From an uncultured Clostridia bacterium (GTDB taxonomy: Bacteria; Bacillota; Clostridia; TANB77; CAG-508): a DNA stretch of 64,000 bases. The DNA lies in contig CANQGE010000001.1 in NCBI GenBank assembly GCA_947601495.1, forward strand, positions 31,731 through 95,730, in the 5' to 3' direction. Below the pieces are notes generated by a model. The model did no database searches and was not told the DNA's origin. It saw nothing but the letters and a program-made list of their open reading frames with translations. Of the stretch, positions 2,591 to 48,288 are shown piece by piece (positions within the stretch are counted from its first letter, which is position 1; every line of letters starts with the position of its first letter). A program made the position numbers and the translations under genes.

Positions 2591-3967
2591 CTAATATCTC
2601 CTGCCATAAGGGTCTGATGGTCCCAAAACATGTAGTTCTTCTTCATCTTCTTCGTCTTTACTTTGTGGTTTTTCTGCTGGTTTTTCTGTTGGTGTTTCTT
2701 CAGGTGTTTCTTCTTTTACTTCTTCTTCAGCTTCTGATTTTTCTCTTGCTTCTATTTTGTCCATTATTTCGTCTCTTTTGCCCATATCTGTTTCAATTTC
2801 TGATCTAATTGTAGGAAGTTTTAATCCATATTTATCAAATAATTTTAATCTATCATCATTGATTTCTTGCATTTTTTCGATTTTTTCTGCTTTTGAAAGA
2901 TTTGTAACATTTTTTATTGAATCTTGTTTATTTTCTAATTCTTCTAAGTTTTGTGCCAATAATTCCTTGTCTTCTCTTCTTAAGTCTCTAGGTTCAGTAA
3001 CTAAATCTGCAACTATTTGATGCCCGTCCATATCTTTATAATATACTTTCGTACCTTTATCTTCCGCATTATCAACTACAGAAGCAGTTTTATATTCATC
3101 CATTACTTTTGTTGCATCTTCATCATATCTTCTTTCATCTATAACTCTTTCACCTTGTACAAATACTATTCTGTCATTTCCTGTTGAAATATCTCCACTA
3201 GAAAAAGCTAAACAATAAACTGGTCCACCATTATCTTGTAATCCTGCTGTATCAATTAATTGATCTGAAATGCTAGAAGGATTTCTTGCTATTAAAACAT
3301 GTTTTAAAGTTGCACCTTCTCTTTCTTTTATTTCATCTACTTTATCTTTTACATTTTCTGGTATGTTTACTTCTTCTTCCTCTTTTTCTTCTTCTGAAAG
3401 TTCTGCATCTTTTTCCTTAGTTTCTTCTTCCTTACCTTTATCTCTTTCCTCTTCTTCTCTATCTATTTCTTTTACTTGAAGATTTGGATTATTTTCTTTT
3501 ATTTTTTTAATAGTTTCTTCTTCATTTTCGGGAATTAATGTATCTTCTGCTATTTGTTTTTCCATTTCTTCTGGGGAATCTGGAAATAATGCATTTTCGA
3601 CTTCTTCTACTGATACATTTGCTTCAACTGCATATTTAAATACTTGTTTTTTCATTCGTGGAGTTAGCATAAAATTTTGTGAGTTTTCATCATCACCAAT
3701 AAAATCAACAGCCATATCTTCACCTTTGTCATTTACAGTTAATATTTGTGTTTCTCCATTTGGTAACAATATTTGAACTTTTCCAATTTTTTCTACTGTT
3801 CCGTCTCTTTTTTGAATTTCTTTTACTTCTACTAAATCAATATTAGATGGATCTATATCTCTTACCCTCATAGTTTTTTTACCATCTGATGATACATATG
3901 TATCTGCATTTTCATAAACTTTTGCAAGTAAAAATTGTCTTTGTAAATAATTATCTATATCGTTCAT
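2591..3967 (-). CDS. Highly acidic hypothetical protein with E/K/D-rich low complexity and a globular central region
   Basis: 458-aa ORF with no TM segment. It has long EEEKEEEE runs and I recognise no motif. It is probably co-transcribed with metG and tmk, with a 31-nt gap downstream. It sits 170 nt downstream of the giant Wzz/BY-kinase-like gene. Confidence 0.6.
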   Translation of the reverse strand: MNDIDNYLQRQFLLAKVYENADTYVSSDGKKTMRVRDIDPSNIDLVEVKEIQKRDGTVEKIGKVQILLPNGETQILTVNDKGEDMAVDFIGDDENSQNFMLTPRMKKQVFKYAVEANVSVEEVENALFPDSPEEMEKQIAEDTLIPENEEETIKKIKENNPNLQVKEIDREEEERDKGKEEETKEKDAELSEEEKEEEEVNIPENVKDKVDEIKEREGATLKHVLIARNPSSISDQLIDTAGLQDNGGPVYCLAFSSGDISTGNDRIVFVQGERVIDERRYDEDATKVMDEYKTASVVDNAEDKGTKVYYKDMDGHQIVADLVTEPRDLRREDKELLAQNLEELENKQDSIKNVTNLSKAEKIEKMQEINDDRLKLFDKYGLKLPTIRSEIETDMGKRDEIMDKIEAREKSEAEEEVKEETPEETPTEKPAEKPQSKDEEDEEELHVLGPSDPYGRRY

Positions 3968-4089
3968 ATTTAGTCTCCTTTGATTTTAAATTTATATTTA
4001 TATTATATAAGTATATTTTTACAATTTCAACAATTTTATTAACTTTTTAATAACAAAATTGCTTATTTTAAAATTTTTATATCTCATAT

Positions 4090-4130
4090 TCTATAAAAAA
4101 ACCTAAATTGAAAAAACATCAATTTAGGTT
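4090..4130 (-). terminator. Rho-independent terminator after the giant gene
   Basis: 9-bp stem cctaaattg/caatttagg at 4102-4110 and 4120-4128. On the minus-strand transcript it is followed by UUUUUUUAU. Confidence 0.65.
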
Positions 4131-4136
4131 TTATTT

Positions 4137-7100
4137 TTATAAGTTTTTATTGTATTTTGTTTTAGGATATAAATTATCACCTAATAGTTCTTCTTCTATT
4201 CTAGCTTCTTCTTTTTGCTTTTCTCTTTCTTCTTCTCTTTGCTTTCTTATTTCCTCTTGTTTTCTCATTTTTTCTTCTTTTAGTTTTTGTCTTTCAATTT
4301 TTCTTTTTTCAGCTTTTTCTTTTCTTAGTTTATTTCTTTCTTCCCTTAATTTTCTTTGTTCTTCTTGTTTTTCTTTTTTATCTATAGATAATATATTTTC
4401 CTCATCTTTTTCTATTTCATACATTCCAGAATTTTCTGTTTCTGCACTCTCAACATCAATATCGCTTTTACTATCGAATTTTTCTATAATGCTTTCATAA
4501 AATTGCCTATTTTCCATTGATTTGTTAAACTCTTCTTCAGTTTTAAATTTTGAATCAATTTCATATATTTTTGAGAAATGAATCATAGATAATTTATCTG
4601 TTATGTTTATTCTATTTGTAAGCCAAATATTATTTAACTTATATTCAAGTTCAATATTAGATTCTTTTAATTCAGCTATTCTTAATCTTTTACATCTTAA
4701 ATCATATTCTTCTGATTTTTCATCTGGAAGTCTATCATAATTTTTTGACATACAATAAGCATAAGTATCTGCTCTATTAGAAACTACTTTTTCTTTTATC
4801 CAAACAGAATCATCATAATCGCAAAGAGTTGTATAAACTAAGGTATCTATTCTTTGAGCTTGCCTTTTGGTTATACCATATAATCCCATTAAGCCTTGCA
4901 TTCTATCACGTATTAGTGAAGGAGAATAATGTTTTTTCTCAAATCCGTCGTTTTTATCTATTCCTCGTATAATTTTTTCTACAAATATTTTTTCACTAAA
5001 TACTCTACAATATCCCTCTTCTGCATCAACAAAAATTAATACTGCACCATTTTTTTTGTTTGTTTCTACATTTTTTTTATCTTTTTTATGTTCTTTTTTT
5101 AATTCTCTTCTCTCTGCTTTTGCTCTTTCTAATTCTCTTTTCTCTGTTTCTCTTCTTTCTGCCTCTTGTTTTTCTTTTTCACGTTTTTCTATTTCTCTTT
5201 TTTCTGCTTCTATTCTTTCTTGTTCTATTCTTTCATTCTTTTTTGCTTCTAATTCTTTATTGTTCTCTTTTAAAATAGTTTCATTTTTTTCTTTCTGAAT
5301 ATTTTTAAAATCATTCTTTTTATTTATTTCATTTTCATTTTGAAATTCATCAAAAGTTTCCTGACCTTCGTAAGTATCTGAATTATTTTCTTTCTCTACA
5401 TCTAAATTTTCATCTAAGCTGTCAAATGATAATTGTGTGTTTTCTTCAGTTTCAATGTTGTTTAGATATATTTTGTCAAATTCTTTTTCTTTTTTTCTTT
5501 CTTCTATTTTTTCTTTAATACCTAATCCAAAATTTACTGTACTTGTTTTTACTTTATTAAAAGAGTTACTTACTACAGCTACGGTTTTTTCTTTTAAATT
5601 TTTTAATGATTTTGCAATATTTTCAAAATAATTATTAACTTTAAAACTTGATTCTGCATTATTAACTCTATTAGAAGAATTATTTATTAAAACAATGTTG
5701 TTTACATTTGTTTTTTTAGGATTTTTATTATAAATATTATTTTTATCTACAATTTCAATTTCTGGAATTATTGTTTTTATACTATCTTCTATATTGATAA
5801 TTTTTTCTTTATTTTCATTATTAGTTTTATCGTTTAAGTTTTCTTTACTTTCTGCTTTTTGCTCTTCCTTTTTATTATCATTATCTTTTACTTCGTTTGA
5901 CTCATCTTTTTCTTCTTTTTTATCTTTATTTTTATTTTCAATTTTATTTTCTTTATCTTCTAACTTATTATTATCTAATTTTTCTACGATAACTTCTTCT
6001 TTATTTTCAGACTGCTTTTTCTGTTCTATTTTATCTATTTTTGCTGCCATAAGAAGTTTTTGTTTTTTCTCTTCTTGTTTTTCTTTCGCAAAATCTTTTA
6101 ATTTATTAATTAGATTTTTTAAATTTTCTATAATTTTAGAAACGTTTAATTTTAAAAATGAAAATACTTTAATAGAAGTTGTTTTTATGTCTTGGAAAGA
6201 TATTTTTCTTCTAAATTTAGTTTTGTTTATTATAATTCCCATTGGATTTCCACCAACATTTTGAATATCTTTCTTAGCTTTAAATAAATCCTCTTTTTTA
6301 GTTTTCTTATAGTCCGATACTATTATTGTTGAATTAACAGCTCTAGTTAAAATTAAAGAATTCATATTGTTTAACACAGAAGTTCCATCTATTAAAACTA
6401 AATCATAAAAAACACTTAAGTCTTTTATTAATTCTTGTAATCTTTCAGAAGTAAGCAATTCTGTTGAATTTGGTGGTACTGTTCCTGAAGTAATCAAATT
6501 TAAATTTTTTATTCCTGTTTCATTTATAAAATTGTTTGTAAGTTTTTTTATTTCCATTCCATTAGAATCTAAACTTGATAAGTAATTAGAAAATCCAAGA
6601 TTGTTTGGTATGTTAAATATTTTATTTTGTCTACCATTTTGCATATCTGAATCTATTATTATTACTTTTTTTCCACTTTCTGCAAAAATTACACCAAGAT
6701 TAGCTGTAATGTAACTTTTTCCTTCACCATCTAAAGGACTTGTTATAAGTATTATGTTTTTCTCTTTATTATTAACGTTTATAAATTGAATATTAGTTCT
6801 AAGATTTCTAAATGCTTTTAAAGTTATTGATTTGCTTCCTGAAGTAGTTGATATTAATTCATTTTTAATTTTATTTGATTTATTTTTTTTGCAATTTATT
6901 AAAGGAATTTCAATTAATTTTTTTAAATTTATTTCATTATCGATGTTCTCATTAATTTTAATATTTCTGTCTATAATCGCTACAGCAAAAATATAACCAG
7001 AGCTTACTAAAATACCAATTATAAGAGAAATAAACGCACATAATATTATTGAAATATTTGTTGTAACTTTATTTATATGAGGACTATCAACTATATATAT

Positions 7101-7544
7101 TTCTCTATTTTCATACATTTCATCTAGTTTATCTGAAAGAATATCTATCAATTTTTGGTTTTCTTTTATTGAATTATTTTCATCAGTATTTTTTACTTGA
7201 ATTTGAAATGTATCTGAATTTGAATTTATTTTTATATCTATGCCTTTTCTTAGTTCTTTATTGCTTAAATTCAAATTTAAATCATCTTTTATTTTTTGAA
7301 TAGAGGAATCACTTTTTAATAGTTCTTTAAAAGTATGTATAAGTTTGGAAGTAATTTCTATGTTTTCTCTACTTTCGCTTTGTCCATTTTCAGTTACTTC
7401 TGATTTTATTAATAAAGCTTTTGATACTGAAATATATTCTTTTTTACTTAAGCATAGAGAAAGAACTATACCAATAATTAGTATAGATATTACAATTAAT
7501 ATTACATGTATTTTCTTTTCTTTTAATTTTTCCAAAAATATCAT
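4137..7544 (-). CDS. Giant membrane protein: Wzz/CpsC-like chain-length-determinant domain + BY-kinase (CpsD/Wzc)-like P-loop ATPase + K/E/N-rich low-complexity and coiled-coil segments + unrecognised C-terminal domain
   Basis: N-terminal TM helix, a roughly 170-aa ectodomain, then a second TM helix (ISIILCAFISLIIGILVSSGYIFAVAII). This is followed by NIILITSPLDGEGKSYITANLGVIFAESGKKVIIIDSDMQNGRQ, which matches the BY-kinase Walker A/A' region, and by a Walker-B-like LVLIDGTSV. There is no C-terminal tyrosine cluster. Instead there are about 500 aa of KEEK/NKEN/ERRE repeats and a roughly 160-aa globular region (VLIFVDAEEGYCRVF...LCDYDDSVWIKEK...) that I cannot assign to a family. 1135 aa. Confidence 0.75.
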   Translation of the reverse strand: MIFLEKLKEKKIHVILIVISILIIGIVLSLCLSKKEYISVSKALLIKSEVTENGQSESRENIEITSKLIHTFKELLKSDSSIQKIKDDLNLNLSNKELRKGIDIKINSNSDTFQIQVKNTDENNSIKENQKLIDILSDKLDEMYENREIYIVDSPHINKVTTNISIILCAFISLIIGILVSSGYIFAVAIIDRNIKINENIDNEINLKKLIEIPLINCKKNKSNKIKNELISTTSGSKSITLKAFRNLRTNIQFINVNNKEKNIILITSPLDGEGKSYITANLGVIFAESGKKVIIIDSDMQNGRQNKIFNIPNNLGFSNYLSSLDSNGMEIKKLTNNFINETGIKNLNLITSGTVPPNSTELLTSERLQELIKDLSVFYDLVLIDGTSVLNNMNSLILTRAVNSTIIVSDYKKTKKEDLFKAKKDIQNVGGNPMGIIINKTKFRRKISFQDIKTTSIKVFSFLKLNVSKIIENLKNLINKLKDFAKEKQEEKKQKLLMAAKIDKIEQKKQSENKEEVIVEKLDNNKLEDKENKIENKNKDKKEEKDESNEVKDNDNKKEEQKAESKENLNDKTNNENKEKIINIEDSIKTIIPEIEIVDKNNIYNKNPKKTNVNNIVLINNSSNRVNNAESSFKVNNYFENIAKSLKNLKEKTVAVVSNSFNKVKTSTVNFGLGIKEKIEERKKEKEFDKIYLNNIETEENTQLSFDSLDENLDVEKENNSDTYEGQETFDEFQNENEINKKNDFKNIQKEKNETILKENNKELEAKKNERIEQERIEAEKREIEKREKEKQEAERRETEKRELERAKAERRELKKEHKKDKKNVETNKKNGAVLIFVDAEEGYCRVFSEKIFVEKIIRGIDKNDGFEKKHYSPSLIRDRMQGLMGLYGITKRQAQRIDTLVYTTLCDYDDSVWIKEKVVSNRADTYAYCMSKNYDRLPDEKSEEYDLRCKRLRIAELKESNIELEYKLNNIWLTNRINITDKLSMIHFSKIYEIDSKFKTEEEFNKSMENRQFYESIIEKFDSKSDIDVESAETENSGMYEIEKDEENILSIDKKEKQEEQRKLREERNKLRKEKAEKRKIERQKLKEEKMRKQEEIRKQREEEREKQKEEARIEEELLGDNLYPKTKYNKNL

Positions 7545-7774
7545 TTTTTTCCTCTCTTATCTACTAAATAAAAAATAAAAGACGCAAATAAAAATTATTC
7601 ACATCTTTTGTATGGTATTTTCTTATAAAATTCTTAATCATTATAGCAAACTTTCTTTAAAAATTCAATACTTTTAAAGTATTTATTTAAAAATTTTTAT
7701 GCTAATTTTGACATCTTATTTTTTAAAGTTTACTATTTTTATAGATTACTATTTAAACTCTGTTTTAAAACAAT

Positions 7775-7812
7775 TGGAACGCCAAAAAGCACACTGTAAA
7801 GTGTGCCTTTTA
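7775..7812 (-). terminator. Rho-independent terminator after the secreted-protein gene
   Basis: Stem gcacact/agtgtgc with a gtaa loop at 7789-7806, flanked by A/T runs. The minus-strand hairpin is followed by UUUUU. Confidence 0.5.
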
Positions 7813-7834: not shown

Positions 7835-8263
7835 TTAAACATTATAATCTGATACTTTCTTATAAGCATATAATGCTGAAGCAACAAGTGCAATTGTTAC
7901 AAATACCATAGATGATCCATTTCCTGCATATGGTAATGAAGAACTTACTTTATTTGTGTTTGAATTTGTTGAATTAGTATTACTAGAAGTATTAGTGTTT
8001 GTGTTGTTTACTGTATTATTAGCACTTGGTGAACCAACTGTTGCTGGAATAAGTGTTCCGTTTGTGTTTGAATTTGTGTTCTCATCTGTAGCTTCATTAT
8101 TAACTGCTCCTGCTTCTTCGTTTGTTGAAGTTGTATTTGTATCTGCAACTAATTGTTGACCTTCTGTAGCAGAAACTAATGAACTTATACTAGCAAATGT
8201 GAAAGTTATTAATACGATAAGTACTAAACTTACTAAAAATTTTTCTTTTCTTAATTTAACCAT
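7835..8263 (-). CDS. Small secreted T/S/N-rich protein with a C-terminal LPYAG + hydrophobic + KK sorting-signal-like tail
   Basis: N-terminal signal-peptide-like segment (KFLVSLVLIVLITFTFASISSLVSA). Low-complexity NTNTNTSSNTNS region. C-terminus SSLPYAGNGSSMVFVTIALVASALYAYKK. This resembles an LPxTG-type cell-wall sorting signal, but the motif is non-canonical. Confidence 0.55.
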   Translation of the reverse strand: MVKLRKEKFLVSLVLIVLITFTFASISSLVSATEGQQLVADTNTTSTNEEAGAVNNEATDENTNSNTNGTLIPATVGSPSANNTVNNTNTNTSSNTNSTNSNTNKVSSSLPYAGNGSSMVFVTIALVASALYAYKKVSDYNV

Positions 8264-9562: not shown

Positions 9563-9638
<76 letters not shown>

Positions 9639-17915: not shown

Positions 17916-19175
17916 TTAACTAATTGTTTCTTGTTTTACTTCTTTAATGTCTATATCTCTAACGTGCTCAATTTTTTCCCATTTTGTATTAGGTTTTACA
18001 ATACATTTAATGTTTATAGCTATCCAAGAACCTAAGAATAGTGGATAACAGATAATTGCACCAAGCATAGGTTTAATTTTTCTTTTATCTAATGCCATAA
18101 TAGCTGTTCCTGTAATAACTGGTAAAATAAATGTTGCAATTAAATATCTTCCATAGTTTCCTATTAATTCAGCAGCTGTCATTTCAGAACCTAGATATAA
18201 TAAGCCATTTATTCCTAATAAAACAAAAGTTAATATCATCATAGGAATTCCAAACATATATAATAAACCATCAAAGTTCATAAGAGTTTTATGTTCTACT
18301 ACACCTTTTGCTAAATCTTTAGTGTAGTTTTTCATACATTGAAGATGTCCAACTGTCCATCTAGAACGTTGTGACCAACTTTGAGCAAAATGAACTGGTT
18401 GTTCGTCATATACTATTGCATCTGTTGCCCATCCTATTTTTCTTCCTTTTGCAATATTTATTAAAGAAAATTCAATATCTTCTGTTAAAGTAACTGTTTG
18501 CCATCCATTAGGTTTTATTAAATCAAATTTAACCATAAAACCTGTTCCATTTATTAATGGTGATAATCCTAAATTATATCTTGCTAAGTGATAAAATCTG
18601 TTCATCATCCAATAAAAAATTGCATATCCTCCGGCAATCCAAGAATCTGTAGGATTTTTAATATCTCTATATCCTTGAACAATTTCTTCACCTTGGCAAA
18701 GTTTTTTATTCATATTTTTCAAAAAGTTTTTATCAACAATATTATCTGCATCAAATACGCAAAAAGCATCATAATCTGCATTTTCTTCTATTTTTTGTTT
18801 TAAAAACCAATTTAAAGCAAATCCTTTAGTTTTGTTTGTTTCATCAAATCTTTTTAGGACTTTTGCTCCTGCTTCTTTAGCAATTTCAGCTGTTGCATCT
18901 GTGCAGTTATCTGCAATAACAAATATATCATAAAGATTTTCTGGATAGTCTTGAGCTTTTAGGCTTTCAACTAAATTTTTAATAACTGTTTCTTCGTTAT
19001 GTGCTGGAACTATTGCCATAAATTTGTGGTTTTTTTCAATTAGTAATTTTTTATCTTTTAGTTTTATTAATGAACAAAAACTAACTACAATTTGATATGC
19101 CCAATATATAGTTATTAACCATATCAAAGCTTGTTGTAAAAGATATAAATACTTCATTTTTAACCTCTTTTCCAA
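17916..19175 (-). CDS. Processive family-2 glycosyltransferase (cellulose/chitin/PNAG-synthase-like integral membrane GT2)
   Basis: GT-A domain with AIVPAHNEE...DIFVIADNCTD, DxD-like FDADN and the processive-GT2 signature Q-R-S-RW (SQRSRWTVG). One N-terminal TM helix and about four C-terminal TM helices. 419 aa, a size similar to IcaA/PgaC. Confidence 0.75.
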   Translation of the reverse strand: MEKRLKMKYLYLLQQALIWLITIYWAYQIVVSFCSLIKLKDKKLLIEKNHKFMAIVPAHNEETVIKNLVESLKAQDYPENLYDIFVIADNCTDATAEIAKEAGAKVLKRFDETNKTKGFALNWFLKQKIEENADYDAFCVFDADNIVDKNFLKNMNKKLCQGEEIVQGYRDIKNPTDSWIAGGYAIFYWMMNRFYHLARYNLGLSPLINGTGFMVKFDLIKPNGWQTVTLTEDIEFSLINIAKGRKIGWATDAIVYDEQPVHFAQSWSQRSRWTVGHLQCMKNYTKDLAKGVVEHKTLMNFDGLLYMFGIPMMILTFVLLGINGLLYLGSEMTAAELIGNYGRYLIATFILPVITGTAIMALDKRKIKPMLGAIICYPLFLGSWIAINIKCIVKPNTKWEKIEHVRDIDIKEVKQETIS

Positions 19176-22478: not shown

Positions 22479-23153
22479 TTAATCTAATTCTTCGCGTTCT
22501 TTTTCTTTTTTTGCTATATATAAAACTAATTCAACCACAGCAATAACTGTCATTAAGTTTACTATTACAGGTGATACTGGGATTCTTACTATTGCTATTA
22601 GGCTTGCTATAGCAAGTTCTGTTAAAGCAACTAGTACAAATAGTTTTCCTAACAATTCAAATGTATTCATTTTTCTAAATCTAATAACTAAATATGCAAC
22701 AATTACTACTACTGAAATAATTACTGGTTTTATATATGGTCTAATTAAATCTCTTATTCTTACATTTGAAACTTTCATTCTTTCAATATTTTCTGCTTCA
22801 AGCTCTGTTCCATATTTTTCATTTATTTTAGTTACTAAATTGTTTCTTTCTTCATCTGTGATAGATTGTGAGCTTATATTAAATGAATCTCTAAAGAAAT
22901 CTACACTTCTTACAACTACTGCTTTTTTTCCAAAAACTTCTTTACATATATCTTTTACTTCTTTTATATTTGTTTCTTTTCCTATAAATATATTTATTGA
23001 TTCATGTTGTTCTAACATTAAATATACATTAAATCCTTTCAATGCTACTACAACTAGTCCTGCAACTATTAAAAGAATCAAGCCCAATATAATTATTTTT
23101 TTGCTTCCATTTAATTCCATTGTTTTTCTCCTTTTATAAACTATTTTAAACAT
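22479..23153 (-). CDS. secF: SecF-like protein-export membrane protein, short and apparently C-terminally truncated relative to canonical SecF
   Basis: It aligns with SecF: the TM1 plus GFN region (LILLIVAGLVVVALKGFNVYL...IFIGKETNIKEV) and the YLVIRFRK...LVALTELAIASLIAIV block (SecF YVGFRFEWR...ALAHDVIITLG). It lacks the last ~80 aa, which in canonical SecF carry the final TM helices. It overlaps the upstream secD-like gene by 8 nt. Confidence 0.5.
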   Translation of the reverse strand: MFKIVYKRRKTMELNGSKKIIILGLILLIVAGLVVVALKGFNVYLMLEQHESINIFIGKETNIKEVKDICKEVFGKKAVVVRSVDFFRDSFNISSQSITDEERNNLVTKINEKYGTELEAENIERMKVSNVRIRDLIRPYIKPVIISVVVIVAYLVIRFRKMNTFELLGKLFVLVALTELAIASLIAIVRIPVSPVIVNLMTVIAVVELVLYIAKKEKEREELD

Positions 23154-24573
23154 TTATAATAAACAAATAATTGTATAATGCTTGAAGGAATAATCCCCAG
23201 AATAGAATCATTCCTATACTGCTTATAACCACACTAGACATAAATGTAAATATTATAGAAATTGCACAAATAGGTATAATTGCTAAATACATTTTTTTCA
23301 TAGTTTCTAATAAAGCTATTTTCTTCATTTGGTTAGATTCTAATCTCTTTAAATATTTGATAACAAAAATATAATTTATAATTACTACAGCTACAGTAGC
23401 TATCAAAGCATTTACTGTTATTGCAACATTTGTATATCTTAATATAAGATTTAATAATCCTAAATATCCTAAAGTTAGTATAGAAGCTTTTAATCCTTCT
23501 AATTTAAATCTAATTATTAAATATAAACTTACAACAGCTATAGCTACTATAGTTACTATTTCTGCTACTAATTTTACATCATTAGTTAAAACAGAATTAA
23601 TACGATTATCTGAGCTCAATGTGTATTTTAAAGGTAAAGCATCATCATTTAAAATGTCTACTATCATTGATACACTTTGTGCAACTTCTTTATATTCATC
23701 AAAATCTTCTGTTGCTTGTCCCATAGGAATTTGTAACACGCCTGTTGCTAGTTCTTCGCCGAAATAAGTTGTACTAATAACTTGGTCGTCCATCTTTATA
23801 GAAATATAATTTGTTGTTTCTGTTCCATCTTCTGCTGTAACAGTTTGATATTTATTACTAATATCTTTTAATTTATCTTTTCCATCTTTTTCAAATGTTA
23901 GTTGTAAATATGCTTGGTATGAATTATTATTATTTGATGCTAACATTTTAGCTTCTTTTAAAGTTGAATCATCCATTAATATTAATCCATTTTGATAATC
24001 GATAATTTCAATTTTTCCAACTGTAGAAACTAAGGCTTGTTCAAGTGATAAATTTTCATTATCTGGTAATTCTATAATTATTTCTCCAGTAATACTATCT
24101 AGTCTTATATTATATTCATATACATCCATTTTTTCTAATCTAGATTGAATTACTTTTTTTGCTTTTTCGAAGTTTTCTTTTGTTATACTAGAATCTTCAT
24201 TTGCTTTTATTGTTCTTGTTTCTTTAGTATAGCCTTCTACTTCTGTCTTATCTTCTTCTGGTTCTTCAGTTTTTTCTGCTGATTGATCATTGGTATCTAA
24301 AGAAATTTCTGTATTTGAAGGAGTTTCTTCTTTTACTTCTCCTGCATAATTTCCACCAGCATCTACATATATTTCTTTTTCTTCTTCTGAGTTATCTAAT
24401 ACATAATGTAATTCTCTTTTTCCATCTAGCTCCATTCCTAGATTAAAATCTGGTAATATGTTTCTCCAAATTCCATAATTCTTAACATATAGTCCAACAA
24501 AAGCTACTACTGCTATTAATATTGCACCTAATAGTATTGTTATTGTTTTTACTGTTTTTAAATTCTTTTCCAA
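23146..24573 (-). CDS. secD: SecD-like protein-export membrane protein (divergent)
   Basis: N-terminal TM helix and a large extracytoplasmic domain. KVIQSRLEKMDVYEYNIRLDSITGEIIIELPDNENLSLEQALVSTVGKIEI parallels SecD's IRNRVNELGV...IVVELPG...AKEILG..A.LEF. The C-terminal multi-TM block LYLIIRFKLEGLKASILTLGYLGLLNLIL parallels SecD's MILYYR.FGL.A.IAL. It lies downstream of queA-tgt, as in the conserved queA-tgt-yajC-secDF neighbourhood. Confidence 0.55.
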   Translation of the reverse strand: MEKNLKTVKTITILLGAILIAVVAFVGLYVKNYGIWRNILPDFNLGMELDGKRELHYVLDNSEEEKEIYVDAGGNYAGEVKEETPSNTEISLDTNDQSAEKTEEPEEDKTEVEGYTKETRTIKANEDSSITKENFEKAKKVIQSRLEKMDVYEYNIRLDSITGEIIIELPDNENLSLEQALVSTVGKIEIIDYQNGLILMDDSTLKEAKMLASNNNNSYQAYLQLTFEKDGKDKLKDISNKYQTVTAEDGTETTNYISIKMDDQVISTTYFGEELATGVLQIPMGQATEDFDEYKEVAQSVSMIVDILNDDALPLKYTLSSDNRINSVLTNDVKLVAEIVTIVAIAVVSLYLIIRFKLEGLKASILTLGYLGLLNLILRYTNVAITVNALIATVAVVIINYIFVIKYLKRLESNQMKKIALLETMKKMYLAIIPICAISIIFTFMSSVVISSIGMILFWGLFLQALYNYLFIINV

Positions 24574-26037: not shown

Positions 26038-27621
26038 TTAATTTGATGTATTTGAATTTGAAACTTTATTAGTTGTATTTTCAGTATTTGTAGAAGAATT
26101 TTTGTCAGTAGTTGTATTTGAAACTTTATTTTCATTAGAAGTTGTTTCACTTTCAGTATCGCTATTTTTTTCTTCATTCTCTTCTTTTTCATCTATGTTT
26201 ATAAGATTTTGTTCTTCTAAGAAATCTCTTAAAGGTCTTGCCTGTCCATCATGTTCCATATAATATGTTGTTTCTCCTGATTTTGTAATTGCATATATTT
26301 TAGTGCAAACACAAGGTAATACTATTCTTTCCTCAGTTATATCATATATTCCATATAGTTCATCTTTCTTTATAACAATTCCTTTTATTCCAACAGATGG
26401 TGGTATAAGAAGAACATTTTCTTCATGTCCTGATGTAGTTTCTTTTGAACCAGTTTTATATCCTAAATCATCTATTGTAATTGATAATATTAAATCTCCT
26501 TCTGTATTACATAATCCATATAAATCATCTTTTTGAACAGGTATAACTTCTCCAAAAAGTAATGATGAATTTTCAATATCGTCTAGTTCAAATTCAGAAG
26601 TATCAAAACCTATTGCATCATTTTCTGCATGAATAAGAGTTTTTCCATTTCTATTTACAACTCCAAATTCTCCATCTTTTTCTACTAAATAAAGTTGTTT
26701 TTCATCATCTAGCAAAGAAATATTTTCAAATTCTGACGGAGCAATTACTGTTCCACCATCTGAGTTTAATATTCCCATTGTTCCATTTGATGCAGTTACA
26801 TAAAATTCTTTTACATTTTGAACAAATTTTATATCATTATATTTTACACCTATTACTTCTCTGCCATTTTCGCTTAAAGAAATTACGCCATATAAATTAT
26901 CTTTTGAACCTTCTGTACCTTTTGAAACTATAACAAAATCATACAAAATTGATTTTAAGTTTTCATAATATCCACTTATTTGTGTATATCCAAGTTGAGC
27001 AATAGAAGATTTTGCTTGTTTAACTATATAATCTAAAGTATAAAATCTATATCTATATGGTTTCCAATCAATTCTTAAATTAAGCATTTCTGCAGCATCT
27101 TCTTTTGAAACATATATTTTTCCATCAATAAATTTTAAAGGATTTATTAAATCAAAGTTTTCGCAATAACCACTTTTATTTTTTGTAGTTACAACTATAT
27201 CTGCGATAGTAATTTTTTGACTAGTTGAAACCGTTGAAATATATTTTTGATATTTATTTTCATTAACTGACATTGCAACTATTTCAAAATCATTTTGTAA
27301 ATAGCAACTATCAGCATTTTCATTATATTTATTATATTCACCTTGATTATATGTATAGTTTAATAGAGTGGCTAATTCATTAGCATTTAAATATACTGTT
27401 CCTTCAATTTCTTTATAGAAATCATCTGGAAAGCTTTGTTGCTGATTATTATCTATAAATACTTTGTCTGTAACTGAATCTTGATATTGTAAAAGTAGAA
27501 TCATTGCAACAAGTCCTACTATTAAAAGTGCACATAATACTATAGAAAGCATAACTCCTTTTCTGTTTCTAGTATTTTTTTCCATTTTTTCTCTGTACAA
27601 ATCGCTTTCTTCTAAGTTCAT
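26038..27621 (-). CDS. Membrane-anchored WG-repeat (KWG-like) protein with an S/T/N-rich C-terminal tail
   Basis: N-terminal TM helix (VMLSIVLCALLIVGLVAMILLL). There are several repeats of the type [DE]xxYG[LVI]xxxxGxx[IV][IL], for example KDDLYGLCNTEGDLIL, KDELYGIYDITEERIVL, KDGEFGVVNRNGKTLI and KDNLYGVISLSENGREVI. C-terminal low-complexity TSNENKVSNTTTDKNSSTNTENTTNKVSNSNTSN. 527 aa. Confidence 0.6.
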   Translation of the reverse strand: MNLEESDLYREKMEKNTRNRKGVMLSIVLCALLIVGLVAMILLLQYQDSVTDKVFIDNNQQQSFPDDFYKEIEGTVYLNANELATLLNYTYNQGEYNKYNENADSCYLQNDFEIVAMSVNENKYQKYISTVSTSQKITIADIVVTTKNKSGYCENFDLINPLKFIDGKIYVSKEDAAEMLNLRIDWKPYRYRFYTLDYIVKQAKSSIAQLGYTQISGYYENLKSILYDFVIVSKGTEGSKDNLYGVISLSENGREVIGVKYNDIKFVQNVKEFYVTASNGTMGILNSDGGTVIAPSEFENISLLDDEKQLYLVEKDGEFGVVNRNGKTLIHAENDAIGFDTSEFELDDIENSSLLFGEVIPVQKDDLYGLCNTEGDLILSITIDDLGYKTGSKETTSGHEENVLLIPPSVGIKGIVIKKDELYGIYDITEERIVLPCVCTKIYAITKSGETTYYMEHDGQARPLRDFLEEQNLINIDEKEENEEKNSDTESETTSNENKVSNTTTDKNSSTNTENTTNKVSNSNTSN

Positions 27622-32484: not shown

Positions 32485-32514
32485 AAGAAGTAATGTTATT
32501 TCATTACTTCTTTT
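32483..32514. terminator. Bidirectional hairpin at the convergent ends of tmcAL (+) and spoIIP (-)
   Basis: The stem agaagaagtaatg/cattacttctttt spans both stop codons, with T-runs on both sides. Confidence 0.45.
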
Positions 32515-33662
32515 ATTACATTTGCTAAATATTTCATACTGCTATTGCACTGTTCTAAAGTATTTCCTGTTGCTCCAACTTCTATTATGCATGCTCCATT
32601 TGCCACATGCTGATTGTATCTTGAATCTCTTAGTATTATTGGTTTAAAAAAACCCGGATACATTTCATTTGCTTTTTCCTGAATTTTTACTGCCAATTTT
32701 AAATTATTTATCCAGTTTGGATGCTCTAATCCTCCTCCATCACTTCCCATAACAAACATAACTTGAGCTACAACATCATCTCCTATTTGTACACAAGGTG
32801 CATAAGAACTATTATTTCCTAACGCATCTCTATGTAAATCTATTACAAATTCAGTATCATTGTTATTTGCAAGCATACTTTGAATTGTAGATAGTCCTCT
32901 AGTATATGAACCTGTGTATGCTGGATAATCGTGATATGTTGTATTATGAGTTACATTAAATCCAAATTCTGTAAGATAATTTGTAAGTTCAGTTCCAACT
33001 CTTGCCACACTTTTTTCTAAATCTATTGTTCTAAAATTTCCACTAGCGACATAATTGTTTTCTACTGTAGGAGTGTAACTTTCACAAGTATGTGTATGAT
33101 AAATTATAATGTTCTTTTTATTTGAAAAATCTATATTTGGATTTAGCATTTCTTGTGTAAGTGGATATTTAGATTCATTCTTTATTTTCACACTATTATA
33201 TGTATCTGTAAACTTATCAATTTTGTTATTGTCATCTATAACTTTTGTTGGGAGTAAGACATTTTCTAAATCATTTAAACTACTATTGTTTAAATTACTA
33301 TCACCATTTGTTTTGCCTAAATTAACATTATTCTCTTGGATTTCTGAATCCACTTGCTTTTCTTCTGAATTCAAAATTTTAATTTCTGACATTAACAATT
33401 TTTTAAATACACTTACATTTTCATTTTTAGTTTGTTCGTTTGAAAAAGATTTAGAAATTATAAGTGTATTATCTAATATTTTTTCTACGCCAAAATTAGA
33501 AAAATATTTTTCTTTAACAGCTGAAATATTTTTTGTAGTTTTAACTGCTCCTATAACTTTCCATAACACAAATAAAATAATTAAAAGTACTATACATTTT
33601 TTTATGAACTTAATTATATCTTTTAGGTTTATAACAGCTAAATTAATCATATTTTTCCTCAC
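32496..33662 (-). CDS. spoIIP: Stage II sporulation protein P (SpoIIP) family, cell-wall amidase/peptidase required for engulfment
   Basis: N-terminal TM helix. The C-terminal catalytic domain has IIYHTHTCESY...VIDLHRDA...IIEVGATGNT, characteristic of SpoIIP. 388 aa. Confidence 0.8.
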   Translation of the reverse strand: MRKNMINLAVINLKDIIKFIKKCIVLLIILFVLWKVIGAVKTTKNISAVKEKYFSNFGVEKILDNTLIISKSFSNEQTKNENVSVFKKLLMSEIKILNSEEKQVDSEIQENNVNLGKTNGDSNLNNSSLNDLENVLLPTKVIDDNNKIDKFTDTYNSVKIKNESKYPLTQEMLNPNIDFSNKKNIIIYHTHTCESYTPTVENNYVASGNFRTIDLEKSVARVGTELTNYLTEFGFNVTHNTTYHDYPAYTGSYTRGLSTIQSMLANNNDTEFVIDLHRDALGNNSSYAPCVQIGDDVVAQVMFVMGSDGGGLEHPNWINNLKLAVKIQEKANEMYPGFFKPIILRDSRYNQHVANGACIIEVGATGNTLEQCNSSMKYLANVIKEVMK

Positions 33663-43090: not shown

Positions 43091-44377
43091 ATGAAAATTT
43101 TAATGCTATCATGGGAATATCCACCAAGAGTTGTTGGAGGTATATCAAGAGTGGTTTATGACTTATCACACAAATTATGTATGCAAGGTCATAAAGTTAC
43201 CGTTATTACTTATAAAGATGGTAATGTACCATATTTTGAAGATGATGATGGTGTTGATGTTTACAGAGTAGATAATTTTATGATTGCTCCTAATAATTTT
43301 ATAGATTGGGTTATGCAACTTAATTTCAATATGATAGCAAAAGCTGGAGAAATTATTGCACAACAAGGAAACTTTGATGTTATACATGCTCATGATTGGC
43401 TTACTGCTTATGCTGGAAAAACATTAAAATTTGCATATAATACTCCTCTTGTAGCTACTATACATGCTACTGAAGCTGGTAGAAATAGCGGTATTAGAGG
43501 TGATATGCAAAAATATATTAATGATACTGAATGGATGCTTACTTATGAATCTTCAGAAGTTATCGTTAATAGTAATTATATGAAAAACGAATTACAAAGA
43601 CTTTTTGGTCTTCCTTATGAGAAAATAAATGTAGTACCTAATGGTGTTGATCTTACTTTATTTAATGGAATTGATAGAGACTATGAATTTAGAAGAAGAT
43701 TTGCCATGGATAATGAAAAAATTATTCTATTCATGGGTAGATTAGTTTATGAAAAAGGTATTCAAACACTTATTTCTGCTATGCCTAAAATCTTAGACAA
43801 TTATCATGATGCAAAATTAGTTATCGCAGGAAAAGGCGGAATGATTAATGAATTAAGAAATCAAGTTAATTTCCTTGGATTAGGAAATAAAGTTTATTTC
43901 ACAGGACACTTAGCTTCTAAAGATGTTCAAAAAATGTACAAGTGTGCTGATGTTGCTGTATTCCCTAGTACATATGAACCTTTTGGAATTGTAGCTATTG
44001 AAGCTATGCTTTCTGGAACACCAGTAGTTACTTCTGATGTTGGTGGATTAAATGAAATTGTAGAACATGGAGTAAATGGAATGAAAAGTTATGCTGGAAA
44101 TCCAAACTCTCTTGCAGATTCTATTCTTGCATTATTATTTAATCCAGAATTATGCAACACAGTTTCAAAAAATGCAAAAGAAAAAGTTAAAGCTCAATAT
44201 AATTGGACTAAAATTACAGAAGAAACTCACTTCACTTATGAAACAGCTATTTGTGAAACTATTGCAGAAAGACAAAAGAAACAAATTGCTCAAGAAGAAG
44301 CTCGTAATCAAATTAAAAAATCTAAAGAAGTTACAAACCTACTTTCATTCAAGAAAACTCACGAGGCATTTGCATAA
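43091..44377 (+). CDS. GT4-family glycosyltransferase (glycogen-synthase-like, retaining GT-B)
   Basis: MKILMLSWEYPPRVVGGISRVVYDLS N-terminus. E..xxxxxxE region (EPFGIVAIEAM). Good SD (aaaggagca) ahead of the ATG. 428 aa. Confidence 0.8.
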   Translation: MKILMLSWEYPPRVVGGISRVVYDLSHKLCMQGHKVTVITYKDGNVPYFEDDDGVDVYRVDNFMIAPNNFIDWVMQLNFNMIAKAGEIIAQQGNFDVIHAHDWLTAYAGKTLKFAYNTPLVATIHATEAGRNSGIRGDMQKYINDTEWMLTYESSEVIVNSNYMKNELQRLFGLPYEKINVVPNGVDLTLFNGIDRDYEFRRRFAMDNEKIILFMGRLVYEKGIQTLISAMPKILDNYHDAKLVIAGKGGMINELRNQVNFLGLGNKVYFTGHLASKDVQKMYKCADVAVFPSTYEPFGIVAIEAMLSGTPVVTSDVGGLNEIVEHGVNGMKSYAGNPNSLADSILALLFNPELCNTVSKNAKEKVKAQYNWTKITEETHFTYETAICETIAERQKKQIAQEEARNQIKKSKEVTNLLSFKKTHEAFA

Positions 44378-47409: not shown

Positions 47410-48288
47410 TTATAAACTATTATTTATTCCTTCTGAAACAATATTTGTTATGCTATCTATTAATGTATCTATTTCTTTTGGAGTTACTATAAAATTAAAA
47501 TTATTTAATTTCATTTTATCAATTAGTTCATTCTCATTAACTTCAAAATCACATACTTTTAAAGTGTCTAATACAATTGTTGCTGCATCTAAAACCGTTG
47601 GAACTCCAATGCTTATTACTGGTATTCCTAAAGTTTCCTCAGATAAATCTGTTCTTTTATTTCCAACTCCCCCTCCTGGTGCTATGCCAGTATCAGAAAT
47701 TTGTATAGATTTATTTATTCTATCTATATTTTTTGAACACAAACTATCTATTGCAATAATTAATTTTGGCTTGATATTATCTACTATTCCCTTTACTATT
47801 TCAACAGTTTCCATTCCAGTTGTTCCTAAAACTCCTGGCGTTATTGCACTAACGCTTCTTGTATTTTTATCTATAATTTCTGGTAAATACATTTTAATAT
47901 GCCTTGTTATTTCTATGTTTTGAACTACTTTTGCACCTAATGAATCTGGTGTTGCATATAAATTTCCTAAACCTACTATTAATATTTCATCATTTGAATT
48001 TACATGTTTTTTAATTATTTCTCTTAATTCATTTGAAAAAACATTTACAATTTTTTCTTCTTTTTCTGTAGTTATATTATTTATTTTTTTAACATCAATT
48101 GTTGTATAATTTCCTCTTTTTTTGTCCAGTGCTCTTTCTCCATCTTCATTTATTATTTTAACTCTCGTAACTACAATATCATCTATTTTTTCTTCTTCAC
48201 ATTCTATTCCCTCTACTTCGCTTTCTAATTTATTAGCAGTTCTATATAAGTCTCTTCTTTCAACAGCCATATCTGTTCTAAAAAACAT
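47410..48288 (-). CDS. gpr: Germination protease GPR (spore endopeptidase)
   Basis: MFFRTDMAVERRD start, the LIVGLGN...TPDSLGAKVV catalytic region and an overall length typical of Gpr. 292 aa. Confidence 0.8.
   Translation of the reverse strand: MFFRTDMAVERRDLYRTANKLESEVEGIECEEEKIDDIVVTRVKIINEDGERALDKKRGNYTTIDVKKINNITTEKEEKIVNVFSNELREIIKKHVNSNDEILIVGLGNLYATPDSLGAKVVQNIEITRHIKMYLPEIIDKNTRSVSAITPGVLGTTGMETVEIVKGIVDNIKPKLIIAIDSLCSKNIDRINKSIQISDTGIAPGGGVGNKRTDLSEETLGIPVISIGVPTVLDAATIVLDTLKVCDFEVNENELIDKMKLNNFNFIVTPKEIDTLIDSITNIVSEGINNSL

Follow-up and report, generated by a model that had tools for sequence, protein, structure and literature searches.

The 64,000 nucleotides analysed here (the window), from an uncultured Clostridia bacterium, encode on the minus strand a 1135-residue protein, called the giant below, that is built around the catalytic module of the bacterial tyrosine kinases (BY-kinases). 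BY-kinases are understood almost wholly as regulators of capsule and exopolysaccharide assembly, and it has long been asked whether they also signal autonomously or play cell-biological roles of their own. Sequence comparison firmly establishes that the giant descends from the CapA/CapB (CpsC/CpsD) pair of firmicutes, the two proteins having become a single chain. Judging from the parts that several sublineages have discarded and from the genes around it, its conserved function needs neither the co-polymerase ectodomain nor a polysaccharide locus. We propose that the giant is no longer a polysaccharide chain-length regulator, and the reading we favour, at a probability of roughly 40%, makes it a membrane-tethered ATP switch whose displaced acceptor would be a terminal tyrosine, Tyr1126.

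According to this reading, a two-pass anchor would keep an ATP-competent P-loop domain on the cytoplasmic face of the membrane, a task that in some lineages would fall to a basic amphipathic helix alone. The tyrosine tail would have been moved ~680 residues away, with a disordered charged linker, two stiff helices rich in Glu, Arg and Lys (ER/K helices) and an orphan 190-residue domain placed in between, so that the chain would end in a 24-residue peptide with one invariant tyrosine, Tyr1126. ATP-bound kinase domains would self-associate and phosphorylate Tyr1126 in trans, and this phosphorylation would switch cytoplasmic binding by the terminal peptide and the orphan domain, an acidic protein encoded next to the giant being a candidate partner. 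Expression would be set by a strong vegetative promoter and gated by a terminator-like leader hairpin. Four elements of this reading are inferred: that the giant is an active kinase, that Tyr1126 is its acceptor, that the phosphorylation acts as a switch and that the acidic protein is a partner. The reading draws on the retention of the catalytic set in ~90% of family members, on the position of BY-kinase acceptor tails, which always lie at the extreme Lys-rich C-terminus, and on an insertion between core and tail being, in evolutionary terms, the most economical path. With Tyr1126 as the acceptor, the family would show that a BY-kinase tail can be relocated to a point ~680 residues away from the active site and made into a specific switch; with Tyr1126 in another role, it would represent a new ATP-switch scaffold on a kinase fold. 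The family amounts to a natural experiment in which the catalytic core was kept, the C-terminal tyrosine cluster (Y-cluster), the ring-interface residues and the polysaccharide context (in some members also the membrane and extracellular parts) were lost, and a strictly conserved C-terminal module was gained.

The gene and the parts of its product are laid out as follows.

4137..7544 (stop codon included), minus strand: giant BY-kinase-derived protein, 1135 residues (open reading frame list; orthologues and database relatives).
6900..7544, minus strand: CpsC/CapA-like transmembrane activator domain, residues 1-215 (TIGR01006, Pfam Wzz, hydropathy).
6207..6815, minus strand: BY-kinase-type P-loop catalytic domain, residues 244-446 (TIGR01007, 4jlv alignment, invariant residues).
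5049..6206, minus strand: linker, residues 447-832, with a basic amphipathic helix, a KQKLL motif (494-498), a K/E/N-rich disordered stretch and an ER/K helix at ~756-826.
4479..5048, minus strand: orphan globular C-terminal domain, residues 833-1022, ~190 residues (AlphaFold2).
4188..4382, minus strand: ER/K-type charged helix, residues 1055-1119 (composition and AlphaFold).
4140..4211, minus strand: C-terminal peptide, residues 1112-1135, EEARIEEELLGDNLYPKTKYNKNL, which holds Tyr1126 (position-wise counts).

The open reading frame (ORF) of 3408 nt is uninterrupted, in DNA of ~25% local G+C; this frame and the adjoining one of 458 residues had both been reported in an earlier note on this DNA, and both are exact (4137-7544 and 2591-3967, minus strand). 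A genome scan found syntenic orthologues of 1138, 1032 and 1053 residues at three loci (L001, L002 and L003), which are 89%, 60% and 45% identical to the window giant in full-length alignment. A query that concatenated the kinase and the C-terminal domain returned 282 proteins, the best 120 of which are nearly all 850-1157 residues long, and the full-length family members examined (~115) span 814-1157. These relatives come from metagenome-assembled genomes of uncultured Clostridia, where the databases label them only “CpsD/CapB family tyrosine-protein kinase” or “capsular exopolysaccharide synthesis family protein”. Among the orthologues the kinase core is the best-conserved large block (98, 83 and 76% identity to L001, L002 and L003), and in the same order the last 24 residues are 95, 91 and 87% identical, the orphan domain 87, 66 and 46%, and the linker 81, 35 and 23%, with large indels (L001 is near-identical). 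The cytoplasmic parts of the giant are its most conserved parts.

The P-loop domain was compared with the profiles of both kinases and partition ATPases. The BY-kinase profile TIGR01007 scores 147.1 bits over residues 244-445 (curated cut-off 108.05), whereas the MinD profile TIGR01968 reaches 42.1 of 212.9 bits (E 6.4e-11), ParA_partition 25 of 180 and ApbC 20.9 of 348. The best match among PDB sequences is the S. aureus CapA/CapB chimera 4jlv (1.8e-38), whose alignment begins within the juxtamembrane segment; MinD is matched at just 1.5e-5. The CpsD/Wzc-type ATPase of the earlier note is borne out by these scores, and the motifs by which it was recognized are present: ITSPLDGEGKS at residues 266-277, DSDMQNGRQ at 298-306 and LVLIDGT at 382-388. 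By profile and by residue, the domain belongs with the BY-kinases and not with MinD, ParA or Mrp, the placement that would have refuted the earlier note. The giant does share with MinD/ParA the SIMIBI P-loop superfamily, and possibly the concept of a membrane-proximal ATP switch, but the BY-kinase profiles are ahead by >30 orders of magnitude, and the MinD/ParA signature lysine is not conserved (the window giant reads SPLDGEGKS, and positions 271 and 272 are Lys in 24 and 43 of 116 members). With that lysine absent and those profiles far below their cut-offs, the “cytoskeletal/ParA-like machine” that had been suggested for the giant is a conjecture.

The kinase landmarks comprise a Walker A (GEGKS, 273-277), a DxD (298-300), the Walker B Asp386 and an NK pair (440-441). 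G275, K276, S/T277, D298, D386 and N440 are invariant in all 116 members, the last five being equivalent to CapB K55, S56, D77, D157 and N211, and D300 corresponds to D79, the catalytic base of CapB. The roles of these CapB residues, including that of the second DxD Asp as catalytic base, have been described (PMC2422856). D300 is an Asp in 103 of 116 members and N or S in the remainder; the catalytic residues, whose geometry had been singled out for checking, are retained. At Walker B the Asp386 is followed in the window by GTS, the family reading DG[TAS][SP] as against DTPP, with a Pro at +3 in 25 of 116. Beyond the position of Gln302 lie an invariant Gly304 and then R/K305. The Glu before GKS was taken as unusual and then dropped as a distinguishing mark: the canonical CpsD of a firmicute locus (L004), whose Walker B reads DTPP, has NEGKS.

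How does this module compare with known systems? With CapA/CapB, CpsC/CpsD and the polysaccharide co-polymerases of class 2b (PCP-2b) the giant shares a two-pass activator with a small extracytoplasmic loop; with CapA/CapB, a juxtamembrane segment that aligns with the CapA activator fragment; and with CapB/CpsD, the GK[ST], the DxD, the Walker B Asp and the adenine-binding Asn. Unlike CapA/CapB, it is a single chain that carries ~690 extra residues after the kinase in place of the Y-cluster; it does not keep the Glu of the oligomerisation motif (O-motif) or the arginine of Walker A', and keeps a Walker B proline in a minority of members only; it has no cps locus, CpsB or low-molecular-weight (LMW) protein tyrosine phosphatase; and its activator is dispensable in some members. 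Wzc and Etk, fused BY-kinases of the proteobacterial P-type, likewise combine a transmembrane activator domain and a catalytic domain in one chain, and they align significantly with the giant (3cio 4.7e-26, 3la6 4.3e-24). The periplasmic domain of Wzc is large, and the protein also has an RK-cluster, Tyr569, a C-terminal Y-cluster and a place in capsule or colanic-acid operons (PMC9800525), whereas the giant has Arg/Lys (R305) at the equivalent of Y569 and a periplasmic part of only ~120 residues. EcpK of M. xanthus is a BY pseudokinase that lacks the catalytic residues, serves the polysaccharide co-polymerase of an exopolysaccharide pathway and has been proposed to be a scaffold (PMC12004946). 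EcpK and the giant both have a BY-kinase fold without the canonical phosphorylated tyrosines, but the giant retains the catalytic residues in ~90% of members and has no polysaccharide context. EcpK is a precedent for BY-kinase modules that work beyond catalysis or polysaccharide export.

The earlier note had found no C-terminal tyrosine cluster. This is right for the canonical position, as no Tyr occurs at residues 412-605 of the window giant, but it overlooks the best-conserved element of the whole chain, the terminal peptide with its invariant Tyr1126. Position-wise counts over >115 relatives give the consensus EEARIEEELLxDNLYPKTKxNKxL, near-invariant over 24 residues, and DNLYPKTK ends every complete family member seen. 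Tyr1126 is invariant and Tyr1131 variable, both ~680 residues downstream of the kinase core. The Lys-rich, Tyr-bearing extreme C-terminus resembles canonical tails, such as the CpsD end at L004, KYYSSYYGKKYGGYRGR. Outside the giant the motif occurs nowhere in the window or in 14 loci. Clostridial sortase signals read SPKTG or PPKTG; YPKTK was considered as such a signal and rejected, having no Gly, no hydrophobic anchor after it and a cytoplasmic location at the end of the chain.

Could the terminal peptide be a docking motif and not a phospho-acceptor? Several observations weigh against the ATP switch that acts through Tyr1126. AlphaFold, run on the C-terminal fragment, left the tail undocked, with a predicted local distance difference test (pLDDT) score of 46 over the last 10 residues, and the giant and the gene for the acidic protein are separate transcription units whose adjacency may merely mirror lineage-wide synteny. 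The remaining points also suit the chief alternative, which we hold to be possible, if on the unlikely side: a nucleotide-switch scaffold, pseudokinase- or MinD-like, that works without tyrosine phosphorylation, in which ATP would control self-association at the membrane, the terminal peptide would dock and its Tyr would be a contact residue. Canonical Y-clusters are variable in sequence and contain several tyrosines (PMC2422856), whereas all 24 tail residues of the giant, not the Tyr alone, are extremely conserved, which looks closer to a dedicated docking peptide than to a simple phospho-acceptor. DxN or DxS stands at D300 in 13 of 126 members, so that ~10% lack the catalytic-base Asp, with the tail tyrosine motif unaltered. 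Residues described in CapB and Wzc as building the ring, an octamer used for trans-phosphorylation, are not conserved. The EX2RX2R oligomerisation motif on helix alpha2 is not kept: the window reads K243-A-F-R246-N-L-R249, and across the family the Glu position is Lys in 75 of 116 members and the first Arg is Lys in 85, the second Arg being kept in 106. The Walker A' Arg, a ring contact in CapB (R81), is lost as well, with Gln302 in the window and N, I, T or K elsewhere in the family. No cognate phosphatase was seen near the giant, in the 64-kb window or in the related loci whose gene tables were examined. The scaffold also has a published precedent, BY-kinase-like proteins that serve as scaffolds independently of phosphorylation (PMC12004946). 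Against a scaffold of this kind speak the full DxD, Walker A and Walker B set in 90% of members and a kinase core conserved beyond the needs of an oligomerisation module, and its MinD-like form sits badly with the unconserved signature lysine and a profile score of 42 versus 213 bits.

The N-terminal part of the giant brings in a further alternative. Hydropathy places one transmembrane (TM) segment at residues 7-36 and a second at 157-193, with an extracytoplasmic loop of ~120 residues between them and a juxtamembrane activator segment behind, and residues 189-243 align with the CapA C-terminal fragment of the chimera 4jlv. The CpsC/Wzz-like start described in the earlier note is therefore real, if sub-threshold: over residues 4-214 TIGR01006 scores 62 bits (cut-off 296), and the E-value for Pfam Wzz is 0.0095. 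A TM segment, a loop of ~120-130 residues and a TM segment make up the usual layout of the family. In P0120, however, the anchor is reduced to a TM hairpin, and P0123-P0133, P0127, P0144 and some further members lack hydrophobic segments altogether, an N-terminal MLFLEK being fused straight to the juxtamembrane IFNEKIK segment. In total the activator domain is missing from at least 10 family members, which still carry the kinase, the orphan domain and the terminal peptide. In one such TM-less giant (L010) the start codon comes immediately after the intact promoter, leader hairpin and ribosome binding site (RBS) shared by the family, so the deletion is genuine and in frame, and the start is not mis-called. 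Since the ectodomain or both TM helices can be deleted while kinase, domain and tail are kept, the core function appears to be cytoplasmic. The idea that a BY-kinase module had been recruited away from capsule work is strengthened by these deletions.

Could the giant still be a co-polymerase and regulator of a polysaccharide or cell-wall glycopolymer (PCP-2b type), with its synthesis genes elsewhere and the extension as added regulation? Where it is kept, the Wzz-like ectodomain is 48-93% identical among orthologues, in conserved blocks, and to judge by this identity it is under purifying selection; many family members match Pfam Wzz; the upstream neighbour is always a sortase-type surface protein; and a lone family 2 glycosyltransferase (GT2) gene lies ~10 kb off (17916-19175), adjoining murB. 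We nevertheless rate this alternative as quite improbable. The ectodomain, and even both TM helices, have been cleanly deleted in several sublineages, and what is conserved best lies in the cytoplasm. A Pfam survey of the window ORFs of at least 150 residues, which returned housekeeping, glycogen, sporulation and nonribosomal peptide synthetase (NRPS) genes, found no Wzx/Wzy, LCP, CpsB/PHP, LMW phosphatase or cps-like cluster in the 64 kb, and no initiating transferase; ten related loci have no polysaccharide genes either, Wzx, Wzy, initiating transferase, LCP and CpsB included. The canonical firmicute locus L004, fetched by chance, has by contrast CpsB, CpsC (254 residues), CpsD (232 residues), LCP and CapD side by side. 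The earlier report of no flippase, polymerase or glycosyltransferase nearby thus holds for Wzx, Wzy and any cps cluster, but not strictly for glycosyltransferases, given the lone GT2 and a GT4/5 gene among glycogen genes (43091-44377).

Between the kinase and the terminal peptide lie the parts that set the giant apart. The ~500 residues of K/E-rich low complexity noted earlier are made up of the linker (386 residues, 38% K+E) and the tail at 1023-1135 (113 residues, 53% K+E+R). Across 115 full-length members the linker measures 121-392 residues and the tail behind the orphan domain 123-223; the lengths vary while the K/E-rich composition is kept in both, which makes it a conserved feature and not an assembly artefact. 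The same architecture, with the low-complexity stretch at a conserved position, recurs in independent assemblies, so the stretch is genuine, and the assembly artefact that would also have refuted the earlier note is not seen. As the origin of the long ORF or of its low-complexity part, an assembly or annotation error, or decay into a pseudogene, is next to impossible. P0017 and P0018 (675 and 688 residues) are truncated by frameshifts in A-rich low-complexity DNA, and for both P0017 and the frameshifted acidic variant P0001 the longest contig is given as 9,124 nt, probably one and the same, but the frame is intact here and in >100 independent assemblies, with identical domain order and an identical C-terminal peptide, the regions flanking the low-complexity stretch remain in frame, and promoter, leader and RBS are conserved. 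Where they align, P0017, P0018 and P0001 match the window proteins at 100% identity, which suggests the same species; their truncations, by frameshift or deletion, are likely to be sequencing errors, phase-variable truncation being a possibility.

At residues ~455-500 of the giant (window ~6045-6180, minus strand), a basic amphipathic helix and, after it, the conserved (K/N)QKLL motif lie ~50 residues past the kinase core. Both are present in nearly all members, the TM-less ones included, and may serve as a membrane-binding or oligomerisation element. Of the charged helices, residues 756-826 are of ER/K type (66% E/K/R, 13% hydrophobic), and residues 1055-1119 even more so (74% E/K/R, 11% hydrophobic, no Gly or Pro, dense opposite-charge pairs at i/i+4). 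AlphaFold, run on the C-terminal fragment of the giant only, predicts an unbroken 67-residue helix at 1055-1119 with pLDDT 76-93. By composition and model, this region is probably a single alpha-helix (SAH) spacer, which its composition suits better than a coiled coil. ER/K-type SAH spacers occur in myosin VI/X and caldesmon; the giant resembles them in its runs of 65-70 residues with 66-74% E/K/R, few hydrophobics, i/i+4 salt-bridge pairs and a predicted single helix, its SAH behaviour being a prediction only. We know of no described case of SAH helices flanking a domain in a bacterial kinase.

The globular region between these helices had been put at ~160 residues and called unplaceable. Its size is closer to ~190 residues (833-1022), but relatives outside the giant family are indeed not detectable at the level of annotated families or structures. 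AlphaFold2 gives it a pLDDT of 91-98 from a 40-sequence alignment. None of the 40 members has a Pfam match in this domain, NCBIfam, PADLOC and PHROGs give none, and Foldseek finds no match in PDB or BFVD (best E 0.6 and 0.14); profiles of the domain and of the acidic protein against PDB sequences return charged-helix noise only. An exhaustive HMMER search of 1.84 billion proteins placed the domain in just 49 cluster representatives; a word-index search with the domain alone had returned nothing, a false negative. The complete representatives share the architecture of the giant, and many of the shorter ones look like fragments. The weak top structural matches of the domain are repeatedly RuvC, resolvase, RNase H and ASKHA (actin-like ATPase) folds, which are non-significant and a lead only. 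Two distant stand-alone homologues of the domain were seen, P0164 (223 residues; hhalign probability 98%) and P0165 (328 residues; phmmer E 2.6e-5), both without kinase and without terminal peptide. P0142, a candidate fusion of a partner-like N-domain to the domain of the giant, was left unused: 32 columns aligned, at 25% probability.

Literature searches returned no description of the giant architecture, the orphan domain or the terminal motif. While the catalytic module itself is known, the architecture, two orphan domains, the linear motif and the leader element thus appear to be undescribed, and the two orphan domains and the linear motif are confined to a widespread lineage of uncultured gut Clostridia. 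The isBYK filter of BYKdb classes sequences that miss any required motif, the tyrosine cluster included, as “unsure” and excludes them (PMC3245071), a class into which the giant family would presumably fall.

Transcription of the giant is framed by three signals.

7640..7668, minus strand: sigma-A-type promoter of the giant, TTGAAT, a 17-nt spacer and TGcTATAAT with an extended -10 (consensus scan).
7566..7612, minus strand: 5'-leader element, a 15-bp hairpin (arms 7609-7595 and 7591-7577) whose 5' arm has the invariant UACAAAAGAU, with a U-run after it (RNAalifold).
4098..4132, minus strand: terminator-like hairpin directly past the stop codon of the giant, with the T-run TTTTTTTT on the coding strand.

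Both hexamers and the TG of the promoter are conserved in position in 10 loci, as TTGAnn-17-TGnTATAAT. The leader element lies between the promoter and the RBS and has equivalents in L001-L003 and L009-L014. Its pair cells are 98% paired, versus 47-69% with the partner slid, and include three compensatory pairs; the minimum free energy is -15.5 kcal/mol (z -2.2). No Rfam family matches it. Its resemblance to an intrinsic terminator within a 5' untranslated region suggests attenuation, so that the hairpin is a possible attenuator, and since the leader is too short upstream of the hairpin for a riboswitch, a protein or kinetic mechanism seems more likely. In the window no regulon with the leader motif TACAAAAGAT was apparent: the sole other exact match lies inside the glycogen-debranching enzyme gene. 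The terminator scan reported the palindrome at 4098..4132 under the plus strand; the T-run follows on the coding (minus) strand, where the hairpin can, by its sequence, terminate the giant transcript.

The neighbourhood of the giant adds two genes to the discussion.

2591..3967, minus strand: acidic 458-residue protein (open reading frame list), with its own promoter at 4030-4002.
7835..8263, minus strand: small LPYAG surface or membrane protein, 142 residues, upstream of the giant, with its own terminator at 7789-7806.

The ten loci inspected share one gene order: ychF, the small LPYAG protein, the giant, the acidic protein, (metG), tmk and a WG-repeat protein, and it holds even where the flanks differ (L011, L012). 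Pfam identifies the window neighbours as tmk, metG, ychF, a sigma factor, rny, an ATP-grasp gene and the glycogen-debranching enzyme, the first three as named in the earlier note, and neither the window nor the ten related loci hold a polysaccharide locus. The promoter of the acidic gene, TTGAAA-17-TATAAT, agrees with consensus at 11 of 12 positions. The LPYAG, giant and acidic genes of the window each have their own sigma-A-like promoter and terminator-like hairpin, so operon logic does not link the three.

Is the acidic protein a partner of the giant? Its extreme acidity, claimed from the first, is borne out by an isoelectric point of 4.46, with 121 D+E against 68 K+R, and hydropathy predicts no TM segment. 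It consists of an N-domain (1-160), an acidic disordered stretch (~169-201), a second domain (~204-420) and an acidic tail with a DP[RY] motif; AlphaFold gives a mean pLDDT of 68, with ~90 for the N-domain. Its 13 relatives are all unannotated, it has no Pfam, NCBIfam, PADLOC or PHROGs match, and the best Foldseek hit against PDB has an E of 0.17. The weak top structural matches of the N-domain are OB folds, non-significant and no more than a lead, and hhalign detects no relationship between the protein and the orphan domain of the giant. An acidic ORF of 400-530 residues follows the giant in every locus that reaches that far, diverging fast: by phmmer, homology at three distant loci is E 1.5e-16 (L011), E 1.8e-8 (L009) and undetected (L010). 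Conserved adjacency inside a lineage-wide syntenic block is a weak sign of partnership, and with separate promoters and terminators the partner status given to the protein in the earlier note is not borne out. At L007, a metagenome contig without a giant gene, 4311-5549 (P0013) joins a SpoIIIAF N-terminus to the C-terminal half of the acidic protein; this gene immediately follows spoIIIAA-AE and precedes metG-tmk, and it reflects either chimeric assembly or a true deletion or fusion.

A broader conjecture that takes these leads together is in our view unlikely. The BY-kinase module would have been taken over for a cytoplasmic, membrane-tethered machine unrelated to polysaccharide export. Assembled at the membrane by ATP, it would present, on “rulers” of disordered chain and ER/K helix, an invariant tyrosine-switch peptide and an orphan domain whose core may be RNase-H/RuvC-like; it would work with the acidic OB-like protein, stand under a dedicated leader-terminator control and serve, for example, nucleoid, division or sporulation-related organisation. 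If true, this would be the first BY-kinase family with a conserved core function independent of the co-polymerase ectodomain.

The LPYAG protein has a signal peptide, an N/S/T-rich stretch, the LPYAG, a TM segment and a conserved cytoplasmic tail, YAYKKVSDYN[IV], and weakly matches NCBIfam EF0750_LPXTG (E 5.9e-5, sub-cut-off). Its orthologues (L008 1142-1558, L009 9395-9811, L010 9378-9767, L011 9144-9641) keep the C-terminal 30 residues. To judge by its features and position, it could be a membrane partner or substrate of the giant. The conservation of the tail, which contains tyrosines, is unusual for a sorting signal. WG-repeat proteins of ~527-552 residues recur as well, at 26038-27621 (minus strand) in the window and always downstream of tmk in L008-L012.

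Over the window as a whole (1-64000), the minus strand carries nearly all ORFs of at least 150 residues, and in the first 14 kb, the part profiled, the GC skew is negative throughout, which together fit a single replichore arm. A tRNA gene lies at 9566-9638 (minus strand). Two overlapping ORFs of 224 and 475 residues (22479-24573, minus strand) have no Pfam match at E 1e-5 and adjoin an HD-domain protein. The sporulation genes for SpoIIP (32496-33662), Gpr (47410-48288) and YtxC suggest a spore-forming lineage. At 52224-59661 (minus strand) lies a two-gene NRPS with condensation (C), adenylation (A) and thiolation (T) domains in the order C-A-T-C, then a C-domain tail, A-T and a terminal reductase. 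It adjoins a pair formed by a 7TM histidine kinase and an HD-response regulator, and resembles the reductase-terminated dipeptide-aldehyde NRPS clusters reported from gut Clostridia.

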